Assembly (NCBI GenBank): GCA_964618805.1
Contig: CAZUBM010000007.1
Span: 30,183 to 94,182, forward strand
Direction of reading: 5' to 3'
Length of the DNA: 64,000 nucleotides
Source of the DNA: an uncultured Nitrososphaerota archaeon
GTDB lineage: Archaea; Korarchaeota; Korarchaeia; Korarchaeales; Korarchaeaceae
The notes below the pieces were generated by a model that was not told the origin of the DNA, did no database searches, and saw only the letters and a list, made by a program, of their open reading frames with translations. Shown here one piece after another: positions 25,261-49,159 of the stretch; the first letter of the stretch is position 1, and each line of letters opens with the position of its first letter. Both the position numbers and the translations under genes were made by a program.

Positions 25261-25451
25261 AAGTTGATCTTCAAACTATGGACGTACAGCCAAGAGCACG
25301 ATTATTTCGTGTTTAGGTGGTTATTCAGGAGATGAGAAGAGGCCGTTGGCTACAGATCTGGTTTAACGCCACTGTGCCGAATGATTTCCGAAAGATTTCG
25401 TGAAGAGATTCCATGCTAACCTTTTTGAATCCTATCAGGATGTGTCTTCTA

Positions 25452-25868: not shown

Positions 25869-26179
25869 GGGAAAAGATCATTGAGGATGCCTCTGTTTGG
25901 GCTAGGAAACTTTCCCTTAGGACTACCGCGGTTCTAATTGGATCCTATGCTAGGGGGGATTTCAACCTCTGGAGCGATGTTGATGTGCTGTTAATCTCTG
26001 ATGATTTCAGAGGAGGACCTGTTGAGAGACTCAATTCGCTGGAGATACCTCCTGGATTTCAGGTAATACCCCTGACTTCTAAGGAATTTAGGAGGCTCTT
26101 GAAAAGGAAGGACATTTTGGCCGTGGAAGCGGTTAAGTATGGGATAGTCCTGAGAGATGATCTAGGGATGATGTCCTAA
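25838..26179 (+). CDS. minimal nucleotidyltransferase (MNT)
   Basis: LIGSYARGDFNLWSDVDVLL (GS-x-DxD); overlaps the HEPN gene. Confidence 0.9.
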   Translation: MEVIERRKRLREKIIEDASVWARKLSLRTTAVLIGSYARGDFNLWSDVDVLLISDDFRGGPVERLNSLEIPPGFQVIPLTSKEFRRLLKRKDILAVEAVKYGIVLRDDLGMMS

Positions 26180-27928: not shown

Positions 27929-28050
27929 GAATTCGCTAGAGAGAATACAGAAACAAGAGCAGTTCGATAAACGTCTTACTGGACCTTTTTCATGAAGCTA
28001 ATGGGTGAGTTAAAATATGTATCCATTTTATGTGTTCTTGGTGATACATT

Positions 28051-28308
28051 ATGTACAGAATAAGGTTGTTAACGGGCTTTAGGATAACCATTCCAAAGGA
28101 AGTGAGGGAGAGATGGGGCTTAAACGTAGGAGATGAAATGGAAATGAAAGTTGAAGGAGATAAACTCATTATCCGTCCATTAAAGTTGCCAAAGGACCCC
28201 GTTCTCATGATAGCAGGGATAGCAAAAGGAGAAGCTGTCAAGCTAGGAGAGGTCGAGGAAGCCGTTGTAAGGGAAATCGAGGATAAACTCGAGAAAGGAG
28301 TGAAATAG
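28051..28308 (+). CDS. AbrB/MazE/SpoVT-family antitoxin (VapB-type)
   Basis: RITIPKEVRERWGLNVGDEM...GDKLIIRP. Confidence 0.9.
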   Translation: MYRIRLLTGFRITIPKEVRERWGLNVGDEMEMKVEGDKLIIRPLKLPKDPVLMIAGIAKGEAVKLGEVEEAVVREIEDKLEKGVK

Positions 28309-28332
28309 ATGTTTATCGACTCAACAATTTTC
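28309..28332 (+). pseudogene. N-terminal stub of a VapC/PIN toxin (MFIDSTIF)
   Basis: ATG directly after the antitoxin stop; matches the PIN first strand hhDsxhh; ends at the stop of a convergent gene. Confidence 0.6.
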
Positions 28333-32688: not shown

Positions 32689-34266
32689 ATGGGAGAACTG
32701 ATTGAGTACGCCAAGCTATCCGCTAAAGGAGGGATAGAACTATCCATAGGAATGGTCATATCCACGGCTCTAACTGCGATTGGAACAATCGTTGTTGCAA
32801 GACTCCTATCTCCTGAGCAATACGGCCTTTACACCATAGCTATGGTTCCTGCTGCCATGATAGGCCTCTTTAGGGATTGGGGAGTAAATTCGGCCATAAC
32901 GAGGTATATCTCCTTCTACAGAGCTAAGTCTCAGGAGCACAGGATAAGGTCGGTTCTTAAGGCAGGGATGGGGTTTGCAATCTTATCAGGTCTTCTTTCT
33001 GCTCTTTTCACTGTTGTGACCTCTGACTTGATCGCTAACTTAGTATTCAGGAAGCCGGAAGTAGCCCCTCTCATCAAGGTGTCTGCTATATGGGTTTTTT
33101 CTATGGCCCTCTTCAACGTGGGGTGGTCAACTCTCATAGGCTTCGAGAAGATGGGGCTTAACAGCATCGTCATAATATTTAGGTCTTCAATGAGGAGCCT
33201 TATATCCCCTCTTCTCGTTCTGTTGGGCTATGGAGCTCTTGGAGCTGTTATGGGCTACAGTTTTTCTGGCTTCTTAGCTGCTATCCTTTGCGTCCTATTT
33301 TTCATGAAAGCATATAAAGGAATTGAAGGAGATTCTGATTCCTCGATTAAAGGCACGTTGTTCATGCTCTTGGATTATGGCTTCCCATTAGCAATTGGAG
33401 CGATAGTTAGCGGCTTTGGCAACCAATTTTACAGGTTTCTAATGTCAAGAAGCTGCTCCTCTGAGGCAATTGGGAACTATGGTGCTGCATCCAACTTCCT
33501 CGTAGCGATGGGCCTCCTAACTTCTCCAATAACTACGGTTCTCTTTCCAGCGTTCTCGAAAATAGATGGGCAGAAGGAACCGAACAAGCTTAAGAAGGCC
33601 TTTAGGGCTTCTGTTAAGTACTCATCTGTCTTCGTAGTTCCAGCCGCTGTAGGAGTTATGGTAACATCTAAGCCCCTGGTTTTCACCCTTTTTGGTGAGA
33701 AGTACTCTCAAGCACCTGCTTTCCTATCCCTAGTGAGCTTGGGACAAGTCCTTTGTGCTCTAGGAGCCTTAAGTGCAGCCACACTTTTAACAAGCCAGGG
33801 AAAGACGAAGGAAATAATGAAGGCAAACCTCTTCTCCCTTGCAATAGGAGTTCCAGCAAGCCTCTTTCTAATCCCTAGATTTGGGATATATGGGTTAATA
33901 GCGACTATTCTTCTAGTTTCCTTTATCACGATCATTCTGCTGGACTACAGGATTTTTAAGATATATGGGTTCTGTATCGATTTACACTCATCTGGAAGGA
34001 TTTTCTTGGCATCCTTGTTCATGGCTGCCATAATCTATGGGGTAGAAAATCTGTTGGCCTCACTGATGCCTTTGATCAGGCTAGTAATAGATGGTCTAAC
34101 TGGTCTGCTTGCCTATTCAGCGTTTGTCATAATATTCAATGGAATAAGTTCTGACGATATTGAAAATCTAAAGACAATTTTCAGCAAAGCGGGGATAGTT
34201 GGGAGGGTAATTGTAGGATTTTTGAGCGGAATAGAGCTTCTTAATGAATGGATGAGGGGAAAATAG
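32689..34266 (+). CDS. MOP-superfamily oligosaccharide flippase (Wzx/AglR-like)
   Basis: VARLLSPEQYGLY, DWGVNSAITRY, LFPAFSK, LIPRFGIYG; about 14 TM. Confidence 0.9.
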   Translation: MGELIEYAKLSAKGGIELSIGMVISTALTAIGTIVVARLLSPEQYGLYTIAMVPAAMIGLFRDWGVNSAITRYISFYRAKSQEHRIRSVLKAGMGFAILSGLLSALFTVVTSDLIANLVFRKPEVAPLIKVSAIWVFSMALFNVGWSTLIGFEKMGLNSIVIIFRSSMRSLISPLLVLLGYGALGAVMGYSFSGFLAAILCVLFFMKAYKGIEGDSDSSIKGTLFMLLDYGFPLAIGAIVSGFGNQFYRFLMSRSCSSEAIGNYGAASNFLVAMGLLTSPITTVLFPAFSKIDGQKEPNKLKKAFRASVKYSSVFVVPAAVGVMVTSKPLVFTLFGEKYSQAPAFLSLVSLGQVLCALGALSAATLLTSQGKTKEIMKANLFSLAIGVPASLFLIPRFGIYGLIATILLVSFITIILLDYRIFKIYGFCIDLHSSGRIFLASLFMAAIIYGVENLLASLMPLIRLVIDGLTGLLAYSAFVIIFNGISSDDIENLKTIFSKAGIVGRVIVGFLSGIELLNEWMRGK

Positions 34267-34964
34267 TTTTCAGAAGGAGTTCATCTAAGTTTTTTCCTTG
34301 TAGTGGGTGATAAGCCTCGTAAGGGTATATGGAGACTTGTCCTCGTCTTGAACCTAAGCGTGCCTCAGATTTTGTATAGATCTCTACCTATAATCCTAGC
34401 CCTTTACGAGCCAGAACATATTTTGCTTTAATCGGCTCTAGTTTATTACTTTAAACTGGAAGCTAAGGAGGGGAAGATATTGCCAGACAAAGATCTGATA
34501 AGAGGCGAAGCTAAAGACATCAAAAAAAATCAGCCATGTATGCGGTATAAGATCATGGTTAAGGGTATTAAGGTAGTCGTTAAGGATAGGAGACTCTTCT
34601 ACGATCTTATGAGTGCGGCTTTCTCGAGGTGCAATGATGTTAGGATCTTGCTAGGCAAATCTAGATAAAGTTTTAGGAAGCTTTCCTTCCAAACGTTTAT
34701 CTCCTAATTACCTTCTGTAACAGTTACTCTCTTTTTATCTTCTACATTATCCAGCTTCCTTCCTATTCCCTCTATTGGTATAGGAGGGTTATGACGAGTG
34801 TTTTTCCTGGTCCAAGAGTTCTGAAATAATGGATAAATTGCCACAACTCTTCAAGATTTACAAAGTTTAATGATACCTCCAACAAGCAGAAGCAGTAAGT
34901 AGGTAACTATGTGATTCTTGAGCGAAAATAGAAGTGCTAAATGATTGGATGATCGCGTTGGGCC

Positions 34965-35918
34965 CTATCTTTCGAGGAGGAGATCATCTACTTTCTCCCT
35001 ATAATAGGAGACCAGTCTCCTTATGCCCTCATCTAAGCTTGTCTTTGCCTTAAATCCAAGTTGAGCCTCGGCCCTCGTAGTGTCTGCCCTGGTCCTATAG
35101 ACATAGTTCTTTATGGGACAAGGAACATATTTTGGCTTCAGTTCAGAGCCTAAGATCTCTCCTATCATATTAAACACTTGGTTAAAGCTCGTCTCAATTC
35201 CAGTTCCTACGTTGAAGATCCCATCCTTCCCTAATTGCATCGAAATTAAGAAGGCATCGACGACGTCCCCAACGTAAATGAAATCCCTAGTCTGGCTTCC
35301 ATCCCCATATATTACAGGCGCTTCTCCCTTCAACATGCACCAGATGAATTGGGAGATTATGTTTGCGTACTTGCCCTTGGGAATCTCGTTCTCACCATAC
35401 ACGCTGAATAACCTAAGACCCTTGCTTCTAACCCCGTGCATGTTCCTGTAAAGCTCTGAAAGCCTTTCAAGATAATAACGGGCCTCTGTATAATAATCGT
35501 TGACAAATACTGGCATATCTTCCCTAAATGGGAGGGGATTCCCGTTATAGAGCGAAGAAGTGGAGGCGTAGACCAAAGGACAACTAGCTTCCTTACAATA
35601 TTCAAGGACAGCTATTCCGTCCTCAACTACTTCTGAGACCAGGCTTGGTTTCTCCCTATACATCGGGGAAGAGGAATAAATTCCTAAGTGGAACACTCCG
35701 TCTGCCTTAACCTTTAGCTCAGAGATCTTCTTGCTCCTGCCCTTTATCACCTCTATTTTATCCATGACATCCTCTAGGTTTGAAATGGATCCTGTGTGAA
35801 AGTTATCTATAACTACAACCTCGCAGTTATGAGAAAGCAATCGCTTGACTAGTCTGCTTCCTATGAAGCCAGCCCCACCCGTTACGATGAATGTCCCTTT
35901 TTCCAGATTAAGTCCCAT
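34965..35918 (-). CDS. NAD-dependent nucleotide-sugar epimerase/dehydratase (extended SDR)
   Basis: VTGGAGFIGS, YASTSSLY, YTEAR (YxxxK variant), IYGDGSQTRDFIYV. Confidence 0.92.
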   Translation of the reverse strand: MGLNLEKGTFIVTGGAGFIGSRLVKRLLSHNCEVVVIDNFHTGSISNLEDVMDKIEVIKGRSKKISELKVKADGVFHLGIYSSSPMYREKPSLVSEVVEDGIAVLEYCKEASCPLVYASTSSLYNGNPLPFREDMPVFVNDYYTEARYYLERLSELYRNMHGVRSKGLRLFSVYGENEIPKGKYANIISQFIWCMLKGEAPVIYGDGSQTRDFIYVGDVVDAFLISMQLGKDGIFNVGTGIETSFNQVFNMIGEILGSELKPKYVPCPIKNYVYRTRADTTRAEAQLGFKAKTSLDEGIRRLVSYYREKVDDLLLER

Positions 35919-35964
35919 TTCTCTGTCATTTACTAAATGCTCCAGCAGATTAAAAGTCTTGAAG

Positions 35965-36645
35965 TTAAATCTTGCCTAGCATTGCCTTAAGTTTCATGGA
36001 AAGGACCGTCTTGAGAAATCTGTAAGTATCCCTTGTCATCTTCATCTTTGATCTCTCCTTTCCATAAATCGTCTTTATCTGCACCTCCCCTATCTTTAAG
36101 CTCAGCCTCTTTGCCAAGATCAGGGATGCTGTTTCACCCTCAAACCCCCTTGCCTCAACGTTCATAAGCTTGGTGAGGGCATCCTTCCTGTAGGCCCTGT
36201 ACCCACACTGGGAATCAGAAATTCTAAAGCAAAATAGTATTCTGAGCATGCTGGTCGTTATGAAGTTGGAGATTTTCCTTATTAGGGGCATTCCTTTCTT
36301 AGATCGGTATCCTACGACCAGGTCAAAGTCCTTTAAAGCTTCTATGAACTTTGGAATTTCATCTGGATCGTGCTGTCCGTCTCCGTCCATCTGAATTATC
36401 AGGTCAGATGACTCAAGGGCCTTCTTGAAACCGTCACGAAGGGCAACCCACTTTCCCATGTTCTTCTCATGTACTATAACAATGGCCCCATTTTCTGCAG
36501 CTATTTTTGCCGTTTCATCCGTGCTTCCATCATCTACAACTATTACTTTATCAACATGCTTTTTAGCCCTTGAAATCACATCTGCTATGAATTCCTCCTC
36601 ATTGTACGCTGGAATCACTACCGTAATCCTTTGCAACTCGATCAA
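35965..36645 (-). CDS. GT2 glycosyltransferase (DPM/DPG synthase-like, AglJ-like)
   Basis: VIPAYNEE, VDDGSTD, MDGDGQHDP, DSQCGYRAY. Confidence 0.9.
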   Translation of the reverse strand: MIELQRITVVIPAYNEEEFIADVISRAKKHVDKVIVVDDGSTDETAKIAAENGAIVIVHEKNMGKWVALRDGFKKALESSDLIIQMDGDGQHDPDEIPKFIEALKDFDLVVGYRSKKGMPLIRKISNFITTSMLRILFCFRISDSQCGYRAYRKDALTKLMNVEARGFEGETASLILAKRLSLKIGEVQIKTIYGKERSKMKMTRDTYRFLKTVLSMKLKAMLGKI

Positions 36646-38054: not shown

Positions 38055-38783
38055 TTATCTAATCATCCTTATCAGCAGGAGTATTGGGTCTCCTATCCAC
38101 ATCGTTATCACGTATCCGGCCAAGATGAAGGGAAGCATAGGAATCGAAGGACATATCCAAACAAGAGGCTCTTCTGTCTTTGGAAGTTCTTCTTTAGTCT
38201 CAGGGATCGAGAGAGCTGAGATTAGCTTGAACCTTTTCTTGGGCGAACTCCCTTGTTGAGCGACTGAGAAAAATTTAAACTTATGAGCTTCTTCAGCCCG
38301 AATCGCGATTGCAAGAAGGCTTGCAAGAAGTTTCCTCGGTATAGATTCCTCAAATCCATAAAAGATCTTCTCTCCTCTAAATAATAATGCCATATTCCAT
38401 GCTAGGAAAGAAATTGGAACTAGGAGGATTAACATGTTTGAGTACAACATCGTGCAGAAAGCTGGGGGGAACATGCATTTTCCTAAAGGATGATATGGCT
38501 GGAGCACGGTCAGCGTGATGAGAGCAAGAATATCTGCACCTCCCATAAGTTTAAGCCCCCAAGAAGCTAAAAGCACAATTATAAATGGGATTGAAAACCT
38601 GAGGTAACGTACAAGTAGCGTTAGGGGAGGCCTCTCCACAACTAACGCGTATGCGTCCAACGCGCCACCTAGCGAGATGCCAACCATCCACAGGTAATCG
38701 TCAACTTGCCTGTCCCTCATGTCTTGTATTGCGACTATAGACAATATGAGCAGTGAGAGTAACACTCTGATTTCCTCAAACAA
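38055..38783 (-). CDS. archaeal prepilin/prearchaellin peptidase (A24, PibD/FlaK-like)
   Basis: first Asp in QDMRDRQVDD, MGGAD second Asp, C-terminal VWICPSIPMLPFILAGY; divergent from the pilin operon. Confidence 0.88.
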   Translation of the reverse strand: MFEEIRVLLSLLILSIVAIQDMRDRQVDDYLWMVGISLGGALDAYALVVERPPLTLLVRYLRFSIPFIIVLLASWGLKLMGGADILALITLTVLQPYHPLGKCMFPPAFCTMLYSNMLILLVPISFLAWNMALLFRGEKIFYGFEESIPRKLLASLLAIAIRAEEAHKFKFFSVAQQGSSPKKRFKLISALSIPETKEELPKTEEPLVWICPSIPMLPFILAGYVITMWIGDPILLLIRMIR

Positions 38784-38973
38784 CCTTTATCCCGCATTAA
38801 TCACCAAATCCTTTTATTTTAGATGTTTGCACTACTTAGGGGGAATGCACTTTAATTAAGAAAGCGCATTTCCGATGTTAAAAACTGAAGATTACCAATT
38901 TTAGGGAAGATGACCAAAAGATTTTTTCCTTTACTATGAACTTTTTATTTTTGTGGTTACTCTTAGAATAAGG

Positions 38974-39423
38974 ATGACCCTCAGGAAAGGAGTCTCGCAG
39001 GTCACTACAGCTGTGGTGCTAATGGTGCTTGGCATAGCCCTAGCTGTCTTAGTCTATCAAGTGGTGCTAGGAACTAGCAGGGGTAGCTACTCAAGAATTG
39101 AGGCTGGTACTCCAAAATCTAACATAAAAATAATGGATCTCGATCCCGGAAACCCATCAAACGGAGTTCCTGCAAAGATCTATGTTAGAAACCTTGGACC
39201 ATTGGACATCGAGTTCTCTGGGCCTCAGGAATGGCAGGTTTTCATCGACAACCAGCCGATGAGCATACTTACAATGGATCCGGCTCAGGGAACTCTGGGA
39301 GTTAACGAGGTACTCAACATAACCCTTACAGAGGCAGTTAACGCTTCATTTTCCCACACAATCAAGGTTTATGGACCATATGCTACCGTTGCGTTTGCTG
39401 GGTGGTCTCCAGGAGGGGGATGA
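38974..39423 (+). CDS. type IV pilin with class III signal peptide; distant paralog of the major pilins
   Basis: RKG/VSQVTTAVVLMVLGIALAVLVY; shares VRNLGP, WQVFIDN and IKVYGP with the 42987 and 44159 pilins. Confidence 0.85.
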   Translation: MTLRKGVSQVTTAVVLMVLGIALAVLVYQVVLGTSRGSYSRIEAGTPKSNIKIMDLDPGNPSNGVPAKIYVRNLGPLDIEFSGPQEWQVFIDNQPMSILTMDPAQGTLGVNEVLNITLTEAVNASFSHTIKVYGPYATVAFAGWSPGGG

Positions 39424-39426
39424 GTT

Positions 39427-40326
39427 ATGATGAGAAAAGGTGCTGGTACAATTCTGCTTATAGGATTTGCGATAACAGTGCTTATAATGACCCTAGCTGC
39501 CTATCTCTCCCCGCCAGAGATAAAGATGCAAGCGGGGGTACATGAGGAGTTTGTAGACTCGCTGTCCTACCTCACATCCGTGGTAGACACAGCCGCTAGG
39601 CTACCGGGCACTACGGAGGAGAAGGCGGACTTCATAAACAAGTCCTTCTCCTACCTGAGCAGGAAGCTTATAGAGAAGGGAATAAACCTCACATACATTA
39701 ACATAACTCTTCCTGCTGCAGGCGGTGGAGAGGACAACGTTCTAGTAATTTACACGTTGACGAAAGGTGACACATTCTTCACAGGGATTCTGACCACAAA
39801 TCTAACAGCTATTGAAGAGGGAATAGGATTTGGCCATGGTGGAGGGGGAGGAGCACCTCCCGGAGGAAGCGGAGGGGAATCTCCATTTGGAACGTTCCCA
39901 GGGAAGATAGCGTTCTTCCCTGACATCAAGCGGGTGCCCTCTCCGATCATGCTCCTGGTCTTCAACTTCGATCCGACCGATTATAACCTCACGATCGAGT
40001 TTGATGGTGGAGATTGGACCCTCTGGGGTTGGTACATAAACTTCAGGCCGTTGTGGATGAAGTGGTTCTGGGCACCGCGTACCATGGATGTGTACATCTC
40101 CACTAGGGAGGGAGGTATCACTGGATTAGGGTACGTGTACATCCAGACCTTGAGGACGTCATCTGGAGACGACTATGTGCACTTCTATCCGAAAGAGGAG
40201 CCCGATCGTGTTAGTACGACGCAAATTCACTACACTAACGACTTTAAAGAATTCATAGACACCTGGAAGGAAGGCATAAAGGAGGGCGTTAGCAATCTAA
40301 GGAGATGGGCCAGAGCAGGAAGGTAA
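39427..40326 (+). CDS. minor pilin-like protein with Gly/Pro linker and Trp-rich C-terminal domain
   Basis: MMRKG/AGTILLIGFAITVLI; operon context. Confidence 0.65.
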   Translation: MMRKGAGTILLIGFAITVLIMTLAAYLSPPEIKMQAGVHEEFVDSLSYLTSVVDTAARLPGTTEEKADFINKSFSYLSRKLIEKGINLTYINITLPAAGGGEDNVLVIYTLTKGDTFFTGILTTNLTAIEEGIGFGHGGGGGAPPGGSGGESPFGTFPGKIAFFPDIKRVPSPIMLLVFNFDPTDYNLTIEFDGGDWTLWGWYINFRPLWMKWFWAPRTMDVYISTREGGITGLGYVYIQTLRTSSGDDYVHFYPKEEPDRVSTTQIHYTNDFKEFIDTWKEGIKEGVSNLRRWARAGR

Positions 40327-40341
40327 GGGGTTTCAGGGTAA

Positions 40342-40830
40342 ATGAAGCAGATAATAGCCTTCATCGTCTCTACTCTGATACTTTCAGTCTACGGAACCTA
40401 TGCTGTCCTCCAACTTAAGACCTTGAGTACAAAGGTTAATGAGGCGGTTGAACATAGGGCCGATTTGGTGGTCAGGCAGCTGTTGGAGAACTCTGGAAAC
40501 TGGTCTGTATCCCCTCCCTCAATAGGTCTGGCCGTCTCTGAGGAGGGACAAGCGGGAAAATTCGTATACCCTTACGTGATAGATGTTAATAAACTTAGCC
40601 AGCTCATCTCCCTGAATTACAGCACGCTAAGGGCCAGTCTTTCACCCGGGGACTACGATGTCAGGATCGTTTTCTATTATTATAACGAGAGCTCTGGATC
40701 CTTCCCCGAATCCCCGAGCCTAGTCATTGGATCCAGCATAATTGGTGAGATAAGAGCTACTAGGCATGTCTTAGCCCGTCTGTCCAATGGGACCTTATGC
40801 GAGGTTAGGGTTATCGTTTCTGGAGGTTAG
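40342..40830 (+). CDS. minor pilin-like protein
   Basis: N-terminal hydrophobic helix then amphipathic helix; SGNW...IGLA motif; several NxS/T sequons. Confidence 0.6.
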   Translation: MKQIIAFIVSTLILSVYGTYAVLQLKTLSTKVNEAVEHRADLVVRQLLENSGNWSVSPPSIGLAVSEEGQAGKFVYPYVIDVNKLSQLISLNYSTLRASLSPGDYDVRIVFYYYNESSGSFPESPSLVIGSSIIGEIRATRHVLARLSNGTLCEVRVIVSGG

Positions 40831-40833
40831 GAC

Positions 40834-41874
40834 ATGATAAGCGAACCCATAGAGGCTGTGATAGCTGTAGTCCTAGTGACAATAGCCCTAGCGACTGTTA
40901 TAACATACATGAGAGTTATAACAAGGCAGGAGATAGTTTCTGAGAGAGTTTTGGCAAGAAGCGTAGCCTCCGTTCTCGCCGATCTATATGCTAGAGACTT
41001 CGTAATGTACGGAAATATCTCATTTCAGGAGTTTAGGAACAAAGTTGGAGAGATCTGCTCTTTAACCTGGAAGAGAACTGGGGTTTGGGTAAACGTTAGC
41101 ATGTACATGATTTTCCTGAATGGGACAGAGGTCGAGTTCCAGGTAAATTCCACGAAAGTCCCTAGACCTCAAGGAGACAAGATAATCGTCATGGTTCCTG
41201 TCATGCCCAGAAGCGCGAGCTCCGAGATACACTGGTACTGCCTCTCCTATAGGGATTCCTATTACGTGCAGCAGCACTCAGTAGGAGCCATAACGTGGTG
41301 GGAGGGGGAGACTGCCAGGTTCTACTTCGTAGCCTACGGAGAAGATGGTCTCCCGATCCAAGGGGGGCATGCCCAGGTGACTGTTTACACAAACCTGGGA
41401 GAACTGGTAGGTACAGAAGGGGCTAACCTGGTCAACGGAATGTGTAAGATCGCCATGACCATGGGAGGAAGCGGACCTGCTCCGACGAAAATTCACGTTT
41501 TTGCCAATTACACAGGTCCCAATGGGGAAAGTTTTCCAACTAGAAGCTTCTGGGTAGACCTGGAGAGCGGAGATCCTTACAGCAGAGGAGAACAACATCT
41601 CATAGTTAATGAGACAGCTCAGGAAGATCATCACTTCTACGCCGGAGAGACTATCTACGGGAGGACCGCCAACAGGATGAACCTGACGAGCATAAGGGAT
41701 TTCCTTAAGGATTTGAGCCTGCCTCTCCCCATAAATAACATTAGCCTAGCTCAGGGTCCCTACAACGCCTCAATCATTAATGGATTCGATACAAGCAGCA
41801 GGGCCAACGTACCTTTCTTCATATTCCCCTATACTGTGAGAATAGAGGTTGAAGTGATAGCTCCAAGGGGATAG
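40834..41874 (+). CDS. minor pilin/adhesin-like protein
   Basis: MISEPIEAVIAVVLVTIALA pilin-like helix; large beta-rich region; many sequons. Confidence 0.6.
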   Translation: MISEPIEAVIAVVLVTIALATVITYMRVITRQEIVSERVLARSVASVLADLYARDFVMYGNISFQEFRNKVGEICSLTWKRTGVWVNVSMYMIFLNGTEVEFQVNSTKVPRPQGDKIIVMVPVMPRSASSEIHWYCLSYRDSYYVQQHSVGAITWWEGETARFYFVAYGEDGLPIQGGHAQVTVYTNLGELVGTEGANLVNGMCKIAMTMGGSGPAPTKIHVFANYTGPNGESFPTRSFWVDLESGDPYSRGEQHLIVNETAQEDHHFYAGETIYGRTANRMNLTSIRDFLKDLSLPLPINNISLAQGPYNASIINGFDTSSRANVPFFIFPYTVRIEVEVIAPRG

Positions 41875-41876
41875 AG

Positions 41877-42371
41877 ATGGAAGAGGTCGTCGAATCCGTT
41901 GTTGCTCTCGTCTTAGCTACGGCCATAATAATCGCAAGTTTGATGCTGATATATCCTTATATGAAGGCCAGACAGGCGGAGCAACGCCTTGAGATAGGGG
42001 AGAGGATAGCTTATTCCATCGCAAATACCTTGGAAGGGGTTGTTGCATCTGGGGTTGGGGCTTCCTCCACGATATCAATAGTCCTGCCGAAGGACATAGT
42101 TATAGTCTACGGGAACAACTCGGTGGATGTGGTGGTGATAAACGCCCCGAGATATGAGGACAACCTCACCCTAGCCAACCTTTCAATCACCTACATAACC
42201 CTGAACCCTCATGGAACCGAAATAATAATTTCAGTCCAACTAAAGTCTGGATGGCGGCTTTTAATGTCTGGACTGGCTTCTTCAGGCCAGGAAAACCAAC
42301 TTTTAATTGAGTATCGGTCGTACAATGCCACGACAAATGTAGGTACTATAAGACTGCAGTGGGGAGGTTAG
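41877..42371 (+). CDS. minor pilin-like protein
   Basis: MEEVVESVVALVLATAII; IANTLEGVVASGVGASSTISIVLP resembles archaeal minor pilins. Confidence 0.65.
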   Translation: MEEVVESVVALVLATAIIIASLMLIYPYMKARQAEQRLEIGERIAYSIANTLEGVVASGVGASSTISIVLPKDIVIVYGNNSVDVVVINAPRYEDNLTLANLSITYITLNPHGTEIIISVQLKSGWRLLMSGLASSGQENQLLIEYRSYNATTNVGTIRLQWGG

Positions 42372-42372
42372 C

Positions 42373-42813
42373 TTGAGAAGGGCAGTAATTTGGACAGCTC
42401 TTGCATTAATAGGGTTTATCCTAGCTTCTTTCTTCCTGTTCATCAGGCCATATTTCGTGGAGATGAATTTAAGAAAGGAAGCTCAAGCCATAGCCGAGGT
42501 CGTTGCCTCAGAAATATCTTTTATGTCTAGAATGAGGGAAGGTGGAGCTTTATCTGGTCAGAGAATCGTTAACATAGAGCTTGAGGGGAGCAAAGTGGCT
42601 GAAATTATGATATACAATGAAAGCGTTGTCGTCAGGCTTATCTCTGGAAGGCACGCTGTCATGGCGAACATAAGCTATTACTCCTCCGTCCCTGTAAAGG
42701 CCCCCCCTAAAGTGTATAACGGTGAGGTTATCTTCCTCCTCTTCTATAACGAGACCGTGGGCTCTTACTTCATCCTCGTATCTAACATAGTGGGGGAAAG
42801 CCCAAGGGGGTGA
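42373..42813 (+). CDS. minor pilin-like protein
   Basis: MRRA/VIWTALALIGFIL class III-like signal; EAQAIAEVVASEI helix. Confidence 0.65.
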   Translation: MRRAVIWTALALIGFILASFFLFIRPYFVEMNLRKEAQAIAEVVASEISFMSRMREGGALSGQRIVNIELEGSKVAEIMIYNESVVVRLISGRHAVMANISYYSSVPVKAPPKVYNGEVIFLLFYNETVGSYFILVSNIVGESPRG

Positions 42814-42924
42814 AATCATTTCTACCTTGAAATATATGTAAAGTACTTTCGAGCACATATAATTGCTCTCCGGGCTCAGATGCCAAGATTATACTTTTTT
42901 GTGAAAAGATATGAGTATAAGAGC

Positions 42925-43118
42925 ATTTTTATAGAACTAATAAATTACTTTATATAATACACGAAGGGATAAGAGGGGGTTTGAGCATGAAGAGAGCGGG
43001 AATCTCTAGAGTGGTTGTGGAAGTCATAATCCTCGTTATAGGAGTTGCGCTGGCCCTGCTGATCTTCAGCCCAATAGGTAGCTACATATTTGGAGCTCTG
43101 GGAAGAACCTCTGCTGTC
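42925..43118 (+). repeat. direct repeat copy 1 (pilin promoter, RBS and first 44 codons)
   Basis: matches 44096-44290 except A vs GG near 42947 and C vs T at 43108/44280. Confidence 0.95.
42949..42956 (+). promoter_or_regulatory. TATA box of major pilin A (TTTATATA); identical copy at 44121-44128
   Basis: A-rich BRE-like sequence upstream; about 30 nt before the start; GAGGGGG RBS follows. Confidence 0.65.
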
Positions 43119-43442
43119 GGTGGACAGACCACAATTAGCATACTTTCGGCTAGTGTGGATGATGAAGGCAACATGCACATCCATGTGAAAAACCTTGGTC
43201 CCAATGATGTTCAGGTTAATAGCACTACTGCTAACAAAAGTTGGCAGGTATTCATTAACAATGATGCTACGAGCATAGGCTATGCTTCAGAAAGTACTGG
43301 AGAGGATGACGGAATATTTGCAAAAGAAGAAGTCATAGAACTTGTTACTTCTGATGCTACGTTCTCCAAAACTAGCTCTTATACAATAATAGTCTACGGA
43401 CCAGGCGGAACCCAGACAGAATACCTTTACAGGGGAGGCTAA
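42981..43442 (+). CDS. major type IV pilin A
   Basis: MKRAG/ISRVVVEVIILVIGVALALLIF; own promoter and terminator; ATG 42987 is an alternative start. Confidence 0.88.
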   Translation: MSMKRAGISRVVVEVIILVIGVALALLIFSPIGSYIFGALGRTSAVGGQTTISILSASVDDEGNMHIHVKNLGPNDVQVNSTTANKSWQVFINNDATSIGYASESTGEDDGIFAKEEVIELVTSDATFSKTSSYTIIVYGPGGTQTEYLYRGG

Positions 43443-43456
43443 TCTCCTCCTTTTTT
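43431..43456 (+). terminator. hairpin plus T6 tract overlapping the pilin A stop
   Basis: GGAGG-ctaa-TCTCC followed by TCC and TTTTTT. Confidence 0.55.
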
Positions 43457-43663
43457 ATTGCTTTCTTTTAATCTAACTTGTGAGATTAAATATAATTGTC
43501 CGGTGAATAGGGTTAGCTATCCAGACTTTTTATCCAAATAACCTAATTACATCAAAGTTTATGGCTTTTTAAAAGAGGTATGAAAGTTTGACGTTAATCC
43601 ACACCATTTTATTTGTCCAGCGCTCCTAAAATTAAGTTAGTTGGGTTCTGGTCGCGACCCTAA

Positions 43664-44090
43664 ATGAAACAAACCTTAAGGCGAGAGGTCCTAAAGCCAA
43701 TAAAGGAGGAGGAAAAGAGGGCACTTGAGCCAAGAGATCTTGAAGAAGTCGTAGAACTCGTGAAAGGGGTTGTCTGGAGAGGTACTAAAGGACAGAGGTA
43801 CATAGTTGTAGAGCCTCCTCCCCCGGACGGTGAAGTGCTCCAAAAGGCAAAGGACTACGTGCTTTCTAGAATTAGCTTTGAGGATTTGAACAAACTGCAG
43901 AAGATATATGAGTGGGGGAAAAGGCGCTAAAGGAGCTCAAAAAGAAGTACGATGAGGAGGCCCTGGAGTCCCTCATATACTATTTGAAGAGGGATATAGA
44001 GGGGTATAGAGGGTTTAGGAAAGCTGGAACCAATCATGAGAGATCCTTACGTCGAGGACGTTACCCTCCCTGCTAGAGGAGGTAGGAAGC
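43664..44090 (+). pseudogene. truncated, frameshifted, diverged copy of the 5' end of the pilus ATPase
   Basis: VELVKGVVWRGTKGQRYIVVEP...SLIYYLKRDIEG...DPYVEDVTLPARGGRK; frameshift near 43920, 10-nt duplication (TATAGAGGGG) near 44000, abrupt fusion to the pilin B promoter. Confidence 0.92.
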
Positions 44091-44095
44091 GCGCT

Positions 44096-44290
44096 ATTTT
44101 TATAGAACTAATAAATTGGCTTTATATAATACACGAAGGGATAAGAGGGGGTTTGAGCATGAAGAGAGCGGGAATCTCTAGAGTGGTTGTGGAAGTCATA
44201 ATCCTCGTTATAGGAGTTGCGCTGGCCCTGCTGATCTTCAGCCCAATAGGTAGCTACATATTTGGAGCTCTGGGAAGAATCTCTGCTGTC
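44096..44290 (+). repeat. direct repeat copy 2 (pilin promoter, RBS and first 44 codons)
   Basis: near-identical to 42925-43118; spacing 1171-1172 bp. Confidence 0.95.
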
Positions 44291-44608
44291 AGTGGGCAAA
44301 CTACGATTGCTATACTCACGGTATCTGGCATGGGGGAGGCAAATGGTATGATATACGTGAAGAACTTAGGACCCAAGGATCTGTCAGGTGCCAACAGCAC
44401 CACTGCATGGCAGGTCTTCATCGATAATACAAAGCTTACGGTGTCAGGCGTTGGAGGGGCAGTAGGCACTAATGACGAGGTCTTGGAGGTCGACGGGGTT
44501 GCCGAGTTGACCGTTAATCTTAGTGCCTACAGCGCCACCAGTAGCTACACGATCATAGTCTATGGACCAGGCGGAACCCAGACAGAATACCTTTACAGAG
44601 GAGGGTAA
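44153..44608 (+). CDS. major type IV pilin B
   Basis: same N-terminus and same C-terminal SSYTIIVYGPGGTQTEYLYRGG as pilin A, different core; the ORF-track start at 44036 is an artefact of the ATPase fragment. Confidence 0.88.
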   Translation: MSMKRAGISRVVVEVIILVIGVALALLIFSPIGSYIFGALGRISAVSGQTTIAILTVSGMGEANGMIYVKNLGPKDLSGANSTTAWQVFIDNTKLTVSGVGGAVGTNDEVLEVDGVAELTVNLSAYSATSSYTIIVYGPGGTQTEYLYRGG

Positions 44609-44628
44609 AACCCCTTCTCTCCTTTTTT
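44597..44628 (+). terminator. hairpin plus T6 tract overlapping the pilin B stop
   Basis: AGAGGAGGG-taaaac-CCCTTCTCT (9 bp, one G-U) followed by CC and TTTTTT. Confidence 0.65.
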
Positions 44629-44819
44629 AAAAAGTAAAACCTGATGAATGATCTTTTTTGACCTAACCCGTGTTTGTATAATTCCCTCTAATCTCCTGTT
44701 TCTTTGTAGTGTTCATGCAATCAATTTAAGAAGGGAGATCTGAGTTAGAGGTCGATCCACATCATTTTTATTATGAGATCCCAAATAAGTAAAAGAATAG
44801 ATAGAGAGGTTACCCTTAT

Positions 44820-47564
44820 ATGAAACAGTTATTCCACAGAAAAGAAAGGGAAGTTCCAGAGAAAAGAAAGAAAAAGAGGACAATCGATGTTAAGGACCTG
44901 GAAGAGATTGTAGAACTTGTTGAGGGAGTTGCTTGGCGAGGCACAAAAGGGCAAAGATATATCGTTATCGAACCTGCTCCACCGGATCCGGAAGTATTTC
45001 AAAGGGCGAAAGATTATGTGCTTTCAAGATTGAGCTTTGAGGATTTAGCTAAGTTACAAAAATTATATGAATGGGGTGCTAAGAGAGCTCTTAAGGATCT
45101 TAAGAAGGAAATCGATGATAGCACTTTAAAATCCTTGATTTATTACTTGAAAAGAGATATAGAAGGTTTAGGAAAGTTAGAACCAATAATGAATGATCCA
45201 TATGTTGAGGACGTAACCCTTCCTGCAAGAGGAGGAAGGAAGCTCTTTGTTTACTTGGCTGGAAGAGGAGAGTGGCTGGAAACCAATATAGAACTTAGTG
45301 AGGAAGAGGCAAGACAAATTGTCCTTAAGCTTGCAGAAAGGGTTGGAAAACAAGTGTCATTAGCCGTTCCTAGATTGGAGGGTAAGCTGCCCGATGGATC
45401 AAGGGTACACGCACTTTATGGACCAGCTGTGAGCGAGGGAGGCACTATGTTAACCATCAGAAAGTTTGTCGTCAGACCTAGGATGGAGCAGCTTATCTCG
45501 TGGGGAGCCGTCTCTATAGAGGCAGCAGCTTATTTGTGGCTTCTAGCGGAGCACGGAGTGTCTGGATTCATTGTAGGAGAAACGGGCTCAGGAAAGACCA
45601 CATTTCTAAATGCTTTGCTGTCCCTTTTACCAAAATACGCTCATATCGTGACGGTTGAGGACACGCCCGAGATATATTTGCCAGATCACAAGAACTGGGC
45701 TTCTTTGATAGGTCAACCCCCTGGAATGGGGGTAAAGGGTATGGAGATTCCAGACCTCCTGAGAGATGTACTCAGAATGAGACCTGATTATGTGGTCGTG
45801 GGAGAATCAAGAGGTGCCGAAGTGAGATTGCTTGTACAATTCATACACATCGGCCACACAAGCTTCTGCCTTCCAAGAGACGAGCCTGTCTTAGTTGAAG
45901 TTGATGGAGAAGTTAAATTCGAGAAGATAGGAGAGATAGTAGAACGGGTAATTAGAGGAGAAATAAGGGACATTAAGGTTCCAGCTCTAAGCAAGGAAGG
46001 AAGAGTTGTTTGGGTCTCTGCCAGGTCAGCGATAAGGAAGGAAGGACCTAAGGAATTTGTTGAAATAGAAGCTAGGGGAGCACCTACTTTCAGGGCATCA
46101 ATTGGACATCCTGTTTATGTAATTAGAAGCGGAAAACCCCTACTAATACCAGCAGGAAAGGTCAGGCCTGGAGATAAGATCCCCGTGGCTGGAGACATTC
46201 CTGCTAAGATTTCAAAGAGAGAGATATATGTCACAGATCTCCTCAAATCAGAGGATAAATCAATCTACGTCAGAGGAGCTTCGGGCTTGCTTTATGAGCT
46301 AAAACCGTCACAACTAAGCAAACTTGCAGGGCGTAAGGTCGCCAATTCCAACATTTTCGACTGGAGAAAGAGAGGAAAGGCCTTTCCTCTAGATATTTAC
46401 GAGGCCATTGATCCAAAGGGTCGTTATAAAAGAGATATAGAGGTCATGTCTTGCTCCAGAGCAAAATGTTCTATACCAAATAGAATACCATTGAACTTTG
46501 ACTTTGGATATATAATAGGTCTCTTTCTAGCCGATGGAAGCGCTTCATACCTGAAGAATGGTTTGAGAATCAGTCTTAACCCAAGAAAAGACAAGAAAAT
46601 AGCTGACAAATTCAGAAGATCTGTAAAGAAAGTCTTTGGGCTTGAAACTAAGTGCTACCGAATGGAAAAGTCTTTAGAGCTAGTTGTTCATGCTGCAATT
46701 CTAGGAAAAGTGTTCAAAGCTTTGGGTCTCGAACTTTGTGACTCAGAGCGAAGAGTTCCTGATCTTGCATTCGAAGCTCCAAAGGAATTCAGGTTAGGGA
46801 TTCTTGTGGGCTACATAGAAGGCGATGGGCACATTAGAAGGCACGGCAAGAACTCCTATATGATTGTAGCTTATAGTTCAAGCCGTGAACTGGCCTATTC
46901 TTTAGCCTACCTGTGTAGGACTATTGGAATAGACGTATCAGTCAAGGAGAGAGATAGTAGCAGGAGCTATGCAGGGAGTGGACGAATATACATAATCAGG
47001 GTGTTAGGAGGAGAAGGTCTTGTCAAACTATCAAAAGCCCTTAACCTTCAGGAGCCCACTGTGGTTTCAAAGAAACCCGTCTATCTTGCTAAAGTAACAT
47101 CTATTAAGTTCTTGAGCCTTGATTCTCCCCTTTATGACTTTGAAGTACCTGGTTATGGGAACTTCGTGCATAGTGGTGGCATCATAACAAGTAATACCAC
47201 TTTCCATGCTAGCACAATAGAGGGAATTATATCTAGGCTAAAAGGAGATCCTATCAATCTTACAGACGAGCAAATTGCCGATTTTAAGGTTGCTGTGCTT
47301 CTTAGAAAAGAAGGGAATTTTAGAGGTATTGTGAGGATATCTGAGTTAAGCTATGATTCAACTACAGATGAGGTAGTCATGAGGGACATTTTTACTAGAA
47401 AGAGAGAGGGCGAATTGATCGGGAATCCAATTAAGAATAGTCATTTATTCATTGAAATAGCGGCCAACGAGGGAGTTCCTCGCAGCACAATAGTTAGGGA
47501 GTACATGAGTAAGGTTGAAGAGTTGAAAAAGAGAGCTGAGAGGGCGAGAAAGGAGGTTTCTTAA
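44820..47564 (+). CDS. type IV pilus assembly ATPase (VirB11/TadA/FlaI family), intein-containing
   Basis: Walker A GETGSGKTT, TVEDTPEI, LRMRPDYVVVGESRG, His box GHTSF|TTFHA split by the intein. Confidence 0.95.
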   Translation: MKQLFHRKEREVPEKRKKKRTIDVKDLEEIVELVEGVAWRGTKGQRYIVIEPAPPDPEVFQRAKDYVLSRLSFEDLAKLQKLYEWGAKRALKDLKKEIDDSTLKSLIYYLKRDIEGLGKLEPIMNDPYVEDVTLPARGGRKLFVYLAGRGEWLETNIELSEEEARQIVLKLAERVGKQVSLAVPRLEGKLPDGSRVHALYGPAVSEGGTMLTIRKFVVRPRMEQLISWGAVSIEAAAYLWLLAEHGVSGFIVGETGSGKTTFLNALLSLLPKYAHIVTVEDTPEIYLPDHKNWASLIGQPPGMGVKGMEIPDLLRDVLRMRPDYVVVGESRGAEVRLLVQFIHIGHTSFCLPRDEPVLVEVDGEVKFEKIGEIVERVIRGEIRDIKVPALSKEGRVVWVSARSAIRKEGPKEFVEIEARGAPTFRASIGHPVYVIRSGKPLLIPAGKVRPGDKIPVAGDIPAKISKREIYVTDLLKSEDKSIYVRGASGLLYELKPSQLSKLAGRKVANSNIFDWRKRGKAFPLDIYEAIDPKGRYKRDIEVMSCSRAKCSIPNRIPLNFDFGYIIGLFLADGSASYLKNGLRISLNPRKDKKIADKFRRSVKKVFGLETKCYRMEKSLELVVHAAILGKVFKALGLELCDSERRVPDLAFEAPKEFRLGILVGYIEGDGHIRRHGKNSYMIVAYSSSRELAYSLAYLCRTIGIDVSVKERDSSRSYAGSGRIYIIRVLGGEGLVKLSKALNLQEPTVVSKKPVYLAKVTSIKFLSLDSPLYDFEVPGYGNFVHSGGIITSNTTFHASTIEGIISRLKGDPINLTDEQIADFKVAVLLRKEGNFRGIVRISELSYDSTTDEVVMRDIFTRKREGELIGNPIKNSHLFIEIAANEGVPRSTIVREYMSKVEELKKRAERARKEVS
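45867..47195 (+). mobile_element. 443-aa intein with LAGLIDADG homing endonuclease
   Basis: block A CLPRDEPVLV, block B RASIGHPVYV, LAGLIDADG motifs YIIGLFLADGS and ILVGYIEGDGH, blocks F/G LYDFEVPGYGNFVHSGGIITSN, +1 Thr. Confidence 0.93.
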
Positions 47565-49159
47565 TGCCTTTTTTCGGCGAGGAATTCTTCATAAAGGCTG
47601 GAATGCCTGATCAAGATCCAAGAGAATTTCTTGCCAGGCTTTTTGCTGTGTGCGGGGTCATGTTGACCATAGCAGCCGTTCTCTATCGTACGGGATTTAT
47701 GAAGGATCCTGTACGTTTGGCGTTCATAGCAATCTTTCCATCCTTGTTTATGGCACTCACTCCTTTTTTGTCCTATTTGAATCTATCTAGCAAACTTGAG
47801 AAGGATCTTTGGGCTTATCTGGCTACTCTATGGATGTTGCAGAGGGTTGGTAAGTCCATTGGATCTTCCTTTAAGGCCATCAGCAACATAGCTGAGGATG
47901 TTGAAGTTAAAAAATACTTTCAAACAGTGTCGGCCAGGATGATGGCTGCTGGGACCATAGAAGGGCTTGACACAAACATCAGACTTTGTCCCAGCAGCAT
48001 ATGGAGAAGAATCTATTCTAGATTGCATGACTACTACTTCACTAGAGGAGAAGCTATTGATGAGATGCTCAAGCTTGAGCTAGATGAGTCCGTTGAAAAA
48101 ACCATGATGGATGTAAGGAGCAACATGGAAAGGCTTATGATGATCCTGATCATATACACGCTAACTTCAACTGCCTTTCCCTTCGTACTAATGCTGATGT
48201 TCACATTTCAATCCTTAGTATCAGGTTTTGGCGGAGGGGGGATGAGCAACCTAGTCCTAATGACCTCAGTCCTTCCATCTCCGTTTTTCGTCCTACTGTT
48301 TAAGATCCTTGCTCCAAGATACTTTTATTTCGAGAAGAAATCTGTTATAAAGGCCTGGCTATCTTTTCTTGCCGGTTTCCTAGGTGTTTACATAACCTTT
48401 ACAGTGCTGCTTCATAAGCTCCCCCCAAGTATCCAAATTAAATTGCTTAGACTTCCTGTCCCGGTTCTTACACTAAATTTGTGGCAGAGGCTTGCCCTCT
48501 CCATGTCCATAGGATCCTTGATAGGCTTCTTGCAGATCTTTAGAAAAGAGAGGAAGTTAAGGAGCGAAACGTTTGACTTTCCTCTATTCCTTCAAGACCT
48601 CTTCTCGGAGCTTAGAAGTGGGAGATCTTTCAGCGACGCAATATCTTACATGAAGATCACTTACAAGCCCCTAAAAGAGTTCGCAAGCAAGGTGAAGGCT
48701 TGGGCAAAATTGAAGCTTCCTTACACTGAGATATTGAAGAGGATGGCTGAGAGGCAGAAGCTTAGCGTCTCAAGGATGTCAACTCTCCTGATAATGACTG
48801 CTTTGGAGGCTGGAGCCGATCTTAAGGAGGCATTTTCATCTATCTCAGAGTTTGCCGTCAGGTTAAGGGAACTCTGGATAGAAACAGAAGGAGAGAAGAT
48901 GAGCAATTACTTTACTGCCATGTTTTCTTTCATGCTAGTGATCGGATCATATGCCATGCTCGTTAACGTCCTGAACATCCCTCTTCTAGCCCCACATGAG
49001 GCTGAAAAGATCAGAGAAGGAATAATGATGCAGGCATTCGTCCAGACATTGGTTATGGGAGGAACGCTAGGGCTAGTTAGGACAGGACATTTCACCTCCT
49101 CGCTTAGGGAACTTTTCATATTTTCCTTGCTTGCTTTCGTAGTCATGCTCATGATCTAG
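47564..49159 (+). CDS. pilus platform membrane protein (TadC/T2SSF/FlaJ family, two repeats)
   Basis: FPLFLQDLFSELRSGRSFSDAI, ALEAGADL; start overlaps the ATPase stop. Confidence 0.88.
   Translation: MPFFGEEFFIKAGMPDQDPREFLARLFAVCGVMLTIAAVLYRTGFMKDPVRLAFIAIFPSLFMALTPFLSYLNLSSKLEKDLWAYLATLWMLQRVGKSIGSSFKAISNIAEDVEVKKYFQTVSARMMAAGTIEGLDTNIRLCPSSIWRRIYSRLHDYYFTRGEAIDEMLKLELDESVEKTMMDVRSNMERLMMILIIYTLTSTAFPFVLMLMFTFQSLVSGFGGGGMSNLVLMTSVLPSPFFVLLFKILAPRYFYFEKKSVIKAWLSFLAGFLGVYITFTVLLHKLPPSIQIKLLRLPVPVLTLNLWQRLALSMSIGSLIGFLQIFRKERKLRSETFDFPLFLQDLFSELRSGRSFSDAISYMKITYKPLKEFASKVKAWAKLKLPYTEILKRMAERQKLSVSRMSTLLIMTALEAGADLKEAFSSISEFAVRLRELWIETEGEKMSNYFTAMFSFMLVIGSYAMLVNVLNIPLLAPHEAEKIREGIMMQAFVQTLVMGGTLGLVRTGHFTSSLRELFIFSLLAFVVMLMI

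Follow-up and report, generated by a model that had tools for sequence, protein, structure and literature searches.

In a 64,000-nucleotide stretch of DNA from an uncultured korarchaeon (GenBank assembly GCA_964618805.1, contig CAZUBM010000007.1, positions 30,183 to 94,182; hereafter the window, whose own numbering we use throughout), two major pilin genes stand in tandem with near-identical ends and diverged cores. We propose that this pair is probably a fairly recent recombinant joint between two long-diverged versions of a pilus locus, and that the edge of the conserved segment at the start of both genes, here called the 5' arm, is a recurrent breakpoint for cassette exchange and gene conversion. 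The proposal is built on what was observed directly: patterns of segmental identity, phylogenies that disagree between parts of the same genes, and sharply placed breakpoints. An earlier, sequence-only reading had described the locus as a simple cassette pair with constant ends and a swapped core. Throughout, G000 is the window's genome, G001 to G014 are the genomes of relatives, and L numbers denote fetched loci, metagenome contigs included; G000 and its relatives are placed in the class Korarchaeia of the Thermoproteota.

Pilin A (42987-43442, 151 amino acids) and pilin B (44159-44608, 149 amino acids) lie in the same orientation on the forward strand, with start codons 1172 nt apart. Pairwise alignment, counted by segment, shows that their promoters and 5' untranslated regions (UTRs; 42925-42986 and 44096-44158) agree in 61 of 63 columns, codons 1-40 in 120 of 120 nt and codons 41-47 in 17 of 21 nt. 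Identity then falls to 116 of 261 columns (44%) in the core, which encodes the exposed beta-sandwich domain (A type at 43128-43388, B type at 44300-44554), and returns to 51 of 54 over the last 17 codons and stop (43389-43442 and 44555-44608). This last segment is the 3' arm, its first copy followed by an oligo-T tract. The exact runs common to the two genes measure 22 nt (42925-42946), 160 nt (42948-43107) and 35 nt (43398-43432). Copy 1 of the 5' arm (42925-43107, forward strand), which comprises a TATA-like box, the 5' UTR with the ribosome-binding site and codons 1-40 of pilin A, is made of the runs shared with copy 2 (44096-44279, forward strand); ATTTTTATA, from copy 1, is invariant across 5 aligned sequences. 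Beyond the closest relative, the promoter block cannot be aligned between species save for an invariant TATA-like box. The TATA-like boxes and oligo-T tracts were identified by eye, a sigma-70 promoter and terminator scan being left unused for an archaeal host. Near-identical ends around a diverged core are thus just what had been described from the letters alone, with one correction: the 194-bp 5' block said to differ at two places differs at three, in four columns (an indel plus a mismatch at 42947, then 43108 and 43118). The 44-bp 3' block does differ at a single place.

The identity of the 5' arms extends to sites on which the protein has no hold. All 42 of the 42 codons that specify the same residue in both arms are the same codon, and the proportion of synonymous differences (pS) between the arms is 0.00. 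Over the same 44 codons, G000 and its congener G004 differ with a pS of 0.62-0.63 and a ratio of nonsynonymous to synonymous change (omega) of 0.01-0.02. The sequence-only reading had attributed the identity at synonymous and non-coding sites to recombination and not to selection on the protein, and these values bear it out. The 3' arm is less marked: over 20 codons, pilins A and B differ with a pS of 0.40, and species with one of 0.57-0.60.

The duplicated unit is larger than a pilin gene. It spans 1171 nt (42925-44095 against 44096-~45252), meets its second copy at a sharp junction at 44095/44096, and takes in a pilin, a spacer and the 5' part of a pilus assembly ATPase gene. Intergenic regions A (43443-43663) and B (44609-44819), both read on the forward strand, are 42-55% identical, and the ~430 nt of ATPase sequence that follow the spacers are 66-69% identical between the repeat copies. 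Behind pilin B these belong to the resident ATPase gene. Behind pilin A they form a relic (43664-44095, forward strand), the first 432 nt of such a gene, cut off at the junction. The relic has two indels in all, a 4-nt deletion near 43917 and a slippage-like tandem duplication of 10 nt at 43995-44004, which together shift and then restore the reading frame. In nucleotide identity it is closer to the ATPase gene of G001 (77.7%) than to that of G004 (70.0%) or to the resident one (68.6%). Maximum-likelihood analysis unites the resident ATPase and that of G004 in a clade with 100/100 support, and the relic falls outside it, on a short branch (0.13) similar to those of functional genes. Differences between the relic and G001 occur at codon positions 1, 2 and 3 at frequencies of 0.14, 0.11 and 0.42, against 0.08, 0.11 and 0.44 between the resident gene and G004. 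Because this pattern matches that of functional orthologues, the relic must have been functional during almost the whole of its divergence, its truncation being recent. No donor of the relic closer than G001 (74% amino acid identity) was found in a large protein collection.

The spacers divide in the same way. Intergenic region A is of an 'alpha' type, with blocks homologous to the L053/G001 spacer, and intergenic region B is of a 'beta' type resembling G004 (80% identity over 65 nt). As the relic lies outside the resident clade, and spacers A and B are of L053/G001 and G004 type, respectively, we read the array at 42925-~45252 as a junction of two long-diverged pilus-locus haplotypes and not as a decayed local copy; the description as a simple cassette pair had missed the relic and this junction. 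An old tandem duplication in place, in which the ATPase copy decayed while conversion within the genome kept the pilin ends alike, with no foreign or allelic DNA, strikes us as improbable. The unit does have the form of a textbook tandem duplication whose junction is sharp, 5' arm conversion is common in relatives, and since homology ends at the junction, identity right up to it would be expected on this account too. However, a pseudogene of such age would be expected to approach saturation, as the spacers do, and not to sit outside the resident clade on a short branch with differences biased towards third positions. Such a duplication also gives no reason for spacer A and the relic to share the G001/L053 type while spacer B is of G004 type, and it leaves unexplained a block that the window shares with L053.

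This block places a second breakpoint, now between species, at the same spot. The metagenome contig L053 matches window positions 41284-43107 at 1732 of 1826 positions (94.9%), through minor-pilin genes, promoter and arm. Past the arm, identity drops to 60, 52 and 44% in successive 100-nt windows. The last long identical run ends at ~43097, no more than 10 nt from 43107, where identity between pilins A and B ends. Such a block followed by so sharp a drop suggests that two species share a recently exchanged segment ending at the border of arm and core. The tail of L053 overlaps the head of contig G001:C49 by 123 nt with 0 mismatches, and C49 continues into housekeeping genes whose identity to the window is ~72%. 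The identity of G000 and G001 elsewhere is 71-77%, bar one 159-nt piece at 85%, and that of G000 and G004 mostly 76-79%. The G001 assembly breaks within the ATPase 5' region at the overlap of L053 and C49, which hints at a branch, that is, sequence variation, in that population at this spot.

Evidence from reads came in the form of Logan contigs (k=31) of three public runs, of which X1 is the likely source run. As is to be expected, contig ends fall at the repeats. One X1 contig covers 43403-44149 at a depth of 22.9 with no differences, so that a single sequence links spacer A and the relic with the promoter beyond the junction. This bears on the possibility, raised by the sequence-only reading itself, that an assembler stitched the pilin alleles of two strains in tandem through their common ends. 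We regard such an artefact as extremely unlikely, although G000 is a 62-contig draft from a hydrothermal-vent metagenome with 3.4% contamination, the 160-nt repeat exceeds usual k-mers, and X1 holds a related minor population. The independent contig crosses the boundary between relic and promoter, which argues against stitching of two strains; the intact ATPase gene of a second strain would continue into the gene and not into a promoter, and it would not be a relic with two frameshifts; and constant ends recur in many independent assemblies. The minor population is seen in a 181-nt X1 contig of depth 4.8 over 45243-45421, which carries 23 differences (87% identical); the 16 that were listed are mostly spaced by 3 nt or multiples thereof. 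A related population with an ATPase allele of its own is present in the X1 sample.

Depth along the locus is uneven. In X1 it is 35.6 upstream, 50.5 in the shared arm, 32.8 in core A, 22.9 in spacer A and the relic, 14.1 in core B and 32.2 downstream, and in a second run of the same sample spacer A with the relic stands at 3.3 against 5.4-5.5 in the flanks. Structural alleles or a third core could lie behind these differences, as could strain variants lost in contig building. One contig from a ~5x run of the same sample joins core A directly to spacer B (43397->44564, an 'A-only' arrangement), and that run has gaps in spacer A. We discounted this joint, as it crosses the 35-nt shared stretch at ~5x and may be an artefact of the assembly graph.

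The same border marks pilin genes across the family. We surveyed 95 fetched loci and the window with a profile hidden Markov model (HMM), which gave 145 domain hits; retaining those of at least 120 bits with full-length coverage of the profile left 108 hits, 74 of them unique. The 5' arms were at least 97% identical in 9 of 21 unique adjacent pilin pairs, including the window's own and the L066 pair, whose arms are identical as far as the contig reaches. By contrast, none of the 2602 non-adjacent pairs whose core identity fell short of 0.7 reached 97%, and their mean was 78%. Near-identical 3' arms were seen in 6 of the 21 adjacent pairs, against 0.3% of non-adjacent ones. In the nine contigs or genomes with near-identical 5' arms, the identical block begins no more than 13 nt before the start codon, and in seven of these nine pairs it reaches unbroken 125-153 nt into the gene. 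Directly adjacent pairs, with genes 5-19 nt apart behind one promoter, were found in several genera. Within a genome, arm identity is 98-100% (G000, G009, L055, L056, L064, L065, L073 and L081), and between genomes 64-92%. Thus, the breakpoint at the end of the 5' arm appears on three levels: within the genome, between species and family-wide.

In relatives, comparison of orthologous tandem pairs makes concerted evolution of the 5' arms clear. For example, the cores of L056 and L058 are 91 and 93% identical between orthologues, and their two arms differ at 0 of 132 positions within L056, at 15 of 132 within L058, and at 13-15 of 132 between L056 and L058. Synonymous divergence (dS) in this comparison is 0.44-0.48 in the arm, 0.11-0.12 in the core and 0-0.08 in the 3' arm; with arm dS so far above core dS, the arm must have a history different from the rest of the same gene. 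L055 and L056 likewise show 0 of 132 arm differences within each and 15 of 132 between them, and L065/L075 is a third quartet with concerted arms. For G000 itself, no orthologous tandem pair was found among the loci. Trees give a matching picture, in which tandem partners come out as sisters in the arm tree and in no case in the core tree. There, core B and the G002 pilin form a clade with 91% support (the two cores are 72% identical in amino acids), and at least five core types recur in different lineages. In close orthologues, omega is 0.5-0.77 for cores and 0.02-0.04 for arms. The suggestion that cores have been swapped between the same ends fits these results, as core types are old and the core tree conflicts with those of arm and ATPase. 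In a search for the window's arms elsewhere, which had been proposed along with it, the 2.18-Mb draft genome was seen to hold the 5' arm twice and no more, and a metagenome scan with the pilin profile (48 loci), in a collection that may leave out records of the window's own genome, gave none that combines arms identical to the window's with another core.

Some observations on pilin number accompany the survey. The 2.9-Mb genome G014 has about ten major-pilin paralogues at several loci, many in adjacent pairs, and hot-spring metagenomes hold dozens more pilin variants. In G009, a short copy of a pilin's last codons and stop stands just upstream of the first pilin of the pair (L005:1480-1500), which suggests either the remnant of a pilin gene that once lay there or a tract brought by conversion from ahead of the second gene.

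How might the array have arisen? An 'alpha' version of the locus, comprising core A, spacer A and the ATPase relic, would have been truncated where an illegitimate joint attached it to a 'beta' version, the source of pilin B, spacer B and the resident ATPase; the joint falls exactly on the TATA-like box of the latter version. The novel junction between relic and TATA-like box (44091-44100, forward strand) carries ~4 nt of microhomology. Together with the truncation of the relic this may be the mark of illegitimate recombination, and the homologous breakpoint lies at ~43098-43107, but the geometry demands an extra duplication or a later conversion. The identical block from promoter to codon 40 would have been either duplicated by the event that formed the joint or equalised afterwards by gene conversion. 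The N-terminal segment would be under extreme purifying selection, as it must fit the peptidase, the platform and ATPase, and the packing of helices in the filament. If this segment is frozen, the 5' arm would be the only stretch similar enough for homologous recombination between paralogues and between species. Crossovers would then pile up at its 3' edge, the arms of neighbours would be homogenised, and everything downstream, from the core to the spacer and even the ATPase 5' end, could be exchanged as a cassette. The 183-nt direct repeats should also permit pop-out to a single gene and changes in copy number.

Because the two genes have the same promoter, ribosome-binding region, signal peptide and oligo-T tail, both pilins are probably expressed and able to enter one filament machine as two surface variants. 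Their assembly into a common filament would be plausible on these grounds, and viruses that bind pili, or adhesion, may be the selective agent. A stronger form of the idea is that the 5' arm is a standing exchange module, with different cores and one- or two-copy arrays circulating in populations and rapidly changing the pilus surface. The unequal X1 depths and the arms shared between species hint at such a population-level module, which we consider possible but doubtful. If true, archaea would have an equivalent of the surface-antigen shuffling of bacteria, and one that works without a dedicated recombinase.

A programmed system of the Neisseria pilE/pilS kind, in which a donor cassette and dedicated machinery bring frequent transfer of cores into an expression site, is a different matter, and we think it very unlikely. 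Its appeal lies in the constant-variable-constant layout, in the depths of X1 (flanks 32-36, against the lower values for spacer A with the relic and for core B) and of the second run, which could mean mixed alleles, and in an intein homing endonuclease, able to make double-strand breaks, 1.2 kb downstream. Yet there are two copies only, each a complete gene with promoter, start codon and oligo-T tail, and the genome as assembled has no promoterless cassettes elsewhere, nor any further copy of core A, spacer A or the ATPase relic. The 34 open reading frames (ORFs) scanned between 23.4 and 59.6 kb included no member of a recombinase or invertase family, in agreement with the sequence-only reading, which had noted both this lack and the promoter on each copy while still drawing the likeness to Neisseria. 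That likeness does not hold up. No inverted repeats relevant to the locus were found in it, only two weak and unrelated inverted pairs, the main repeats being direct, and upstream of the pilin start codons we saw no canonical G-quadruplex motif by eye, with no program run. In relatives, genes 5-19 nt apart behind one promoter would be co-transcribed rather than silent, and the depth differences could come equally from strain microdiversity lost in contig building. The locus is therefore better described, as far as sequence can tell, by recombination-driven cassette shuffling and gene conversion. If the 5' arm were a standing exchange module, breaks made by the intein endonuclease in the adjacent ATPase gene might stimulate exchange. 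As a driver of it, intein homing is unsupported, since affinity to G004 persists past the intein (81.8% at 47182-48066).

Several points weigh against a recent joint of two haplotypes with a recurrent breakpoint at the arm. The order of the recombination events is reconstructed, and the arm block fits an origin at the joint no better than a later conversion. The link between L053 and G001 hangs on one exact overlap of 123 nt, and the choice of the native haplotype on modest differences in the flanks (G004 76-79%, G001 71-77%). The order A-then-B is only as sound as the assembler, since an exact repeat of 160 nt needs read-pair phasing. Base composition is mixed and singles out no one foreign unit: GC content at third codon positions is 0.33 in core A, 0.60 in core B, 0.47-0.49 in the relic, 0.33 in the resident ATPase 5' end and 0.50-0.57 in other operon genes, and overall GC content is no clearer. 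The idea that both ends act as recombination arms stands for the 5' arm, with its breakpoint at ~43098-43107 both within the genome and between species; as a recombination arm in G000, the 3' arm gives a weak signal. The functional side, namely two expressed variants in one filament, is argued from the genes. Finally, the 21 adjacent pairs are not independent, many coming from related hot-spring populations, and all genomes are metagenome assemblies, in which the popping of graph bubbles could turn arms of ~95-98% similarity into identical ones. The contrast between near-identical adjacent arms and the mean of 78% stays large despite kinship and such rounding.

In many archaea, type IV pili are the principal organelles of the cell surface, and little is known of how archaea diversify these surfaces. 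The locus and its relatives give a picture at the level of DNA, in which an ultra-conserved assembly segment (omega 0.01-0.04) adjoins fast-changing cores (omega 0.5-0.77), breakpoints fall at the border, the arms of neighbours are homogenised, and a mosaic between species extends as far as the gene of the assembly ATPase. Diverged korarchaeal lineages thus appear to undergo homologous recombination with one another, and the locus indicates where it resolves. Pilus 'serotypes' in uncultivated hyperthermophiles thereby gain a model that can be put to the test.

Several well-studied systems resemble the korarchaeal arrangement in part. Campylobacter has the tandem flagellin genes flaA and flaB, and the conserved ends of fliC recombine and thereby swap its variable middle. 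Both share with the korarchaeal pilins conserved ends needed for assembly and a hypervariable exposed middle, homogenisation of tandem copies, and exchange of the middle between lineages. Unlike in the flagellins, homogenisation in the korarchaeon is confined to the promoter and the initial ~40-50 codons, the protein is an archaeal type IV pilin, and the cassette can also take in the spacer together with the 5' end of the ATPase gene that follows it. In Neisseria pilE/pilS, a type IV pilin keeps a constant N-terminal part while homologous recombination changes its exposed part. The korarchaeal genes have the same division into constant and recombined parts; however, they are two complete copies, with no silent promoterless cassettes or sign of a dedicated initiating element in the assembly, and the change is, as far as seen, evolutionary and not per generation. 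Inversion switches of the Piv/Hin type differ in that the korarchaeal repeats are direct, and the ORFs scanned hold no invertase. In Haloferax volcanii, the pilins PilA1-6 share a conserved hydrophobic N-terminus. There, several major pilins with the same N-terminal assembly segment can each build pili on one machine, as the korarchaeal pair would.

A paper that mentions the six PilA pilins also notes that major pilins tend to duplicate in tandem, and its accessible text contains no report of homogenisation at the DNA level or of cassette mosaicism (PMC4858521). In Sulfolobus islandicus, 7 of 12 genomes carry two identical copies of the pilin genes pilA1/pilA2, with the PibD site and H-domain conserved, and deletion of pilins leads to virus resistance, the pili of Sulfolobales being virus receptors (Rowland et al. 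2019, PMC7217056). That case, too, has two nearby paralogous genes for archaeal adhesive pilins; whole genes are alike there, whereas in the korarchaeon only the ends are, with unrelated cores and an ATPase relic between. In the lpl cluster of Staphylococcus aureus, the tandem paralogues each contain a short, highly conserved stretch, and recombination at this site shuffles their variable parts (Tsuru and Kobayashi 2008, PMC2568036). The evolutionary unit there crosses gene borders, as does the unit of 3' arm, spacer and 5' arm in directly adjacent korarchaeal pairs; the conserved site of lpl is central, and those of the korarchaeal genes are 5' (strong) and 3' (weaker), in a different protein family and domain of life. 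Displacement arrays of type VI secretion effector and immunity genes in Vibrio cholerae are attributed to homology-facilitated illegitimate recombination (PMC5361080). In such arrays, an incoming module finds its anchor through homology in a conserved gene next door and is joined illegitimately at its other end, leaving the old module and gene relics behind, much as we envisage here. They differ in that the korarchaeal relic is the 5' end of an assembly ATPase gene and the joint lies at a promoter, and the korarchaeal mechanism is our reconstruction. In the portions of the literature searched, with subscription journals and supplements outside the scope, we found no description of segmental homogenisation or cassette mosaicism of archaeal pilins or archaellins.

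An AlphaFold (AF2) model of pilin A, made with an alignment of 70 sequences, has a mean confidence (pLDDT) of 83.9 and predicts helices at residues 4-26 and 29-41 followed by an eight-strand beta-sandwich. Foldseek matched it to the archaellin of H. salinarum (9eq7, E 7e-7), to the Aap pilus of S. acidocaldarius (8q30), to the pili of S. solfataricus and S. islandicus (6w8x and 6nav) and to 8fk7 from P. calidifontis. Pilin A has no Pfam family, and its NCBIfam match to UpsA (E 9e-5) scores 22.6 bits against a cut-off of 130. On modelled fold and genomic context, we assign it to the archaeal type IV pilin superfamily, outside any named family. By eye, the leader is a short stretch of lysine and arginine ending in AG and followed by a long hydrophobic run; the residues at the putative cleavage site do not fit the usual rule of a charged residue at -2. 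The best relative of pilin A among 5.8 billion proteins (P0002) is 75% identical over the full length, and no relatives of the pilins were found on viral contigs.

The surrounding genes point to a type IV pilus (T4F) operon of a member of the Korarchaeia, an identification that follows from the prepilin peptidase, T2SSE ATPase and T2SSF platform genes nearby and from the archaeal pilin/archaellin fold. A prepilin (class III signal) peptidase gene (38055-38783, reverse strand) is divergent from the operon and matches Pfam Arc_PepC_II (1.4e-7) and Peptidase_A24, with PF01478 above its cut-off at G000:C7:68600-68941. At the head of the operon stands a distant pilin-like paralogue (38953-39423, forward strand; pilin HMM match 1.1e-19, 33% identity to pilin A). 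It is followed on the same strand by five genes (39427-42813) whose small products have a hydrophobic helix at the N-terminus, putative minor pilins or assembly parts, for which no Pfam or NCBIfam family was found. The last two or three of them precede the pilin in equal order in G002, G003 and G004. Downstream of pilin B, the resident pilus assembly ATPase (44820-47564, forward strand, 914 amino acids) matches Pfam T2SSE, LAGLIDADG_3 and Intein_splicing. Its gene contains a LAGLIDADG intein of ~444 amino acids (at about 45867-47198), with NCBIfam intein N- and C-terminal regions at residues 350-434 and 771-793. The ATPase genes of G002, G003 and G004 have no insert at this site, and the insert in G001 is far larger, with 3.4 kb between the matching parts and a partial protein of 1523 amino acids with intein domains (P0121). 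A TadC/PilC-like platform membrane protein (47564-49159, forward strand; Pfam T2SSF 2.4e-7) completes the set.

Upstream of the pilus locus, 32689-36645 holds genes for a polysaccharide flippase-like protein, an NAD-dependent epimerase/dehydratase and a family-2 glycosyltransferase. These sugar-modifying genes may serve pilin glycosylation; both cores contain N-X-S/T sequons by eye. Farther upstream, G004 is 90% identical to the window over 1.2 kb (27111-28332), against 76-79% elsewhere; this segment, too, may have been exchanged recently, or it may be unusually conserved. At 25413-26179, a gene for a HEPN-domain protein of 151 amino acids is followed by an overlapping ORF of 113 amino acids, and the two may form a HEPN/nucleotidyltransferase pair.

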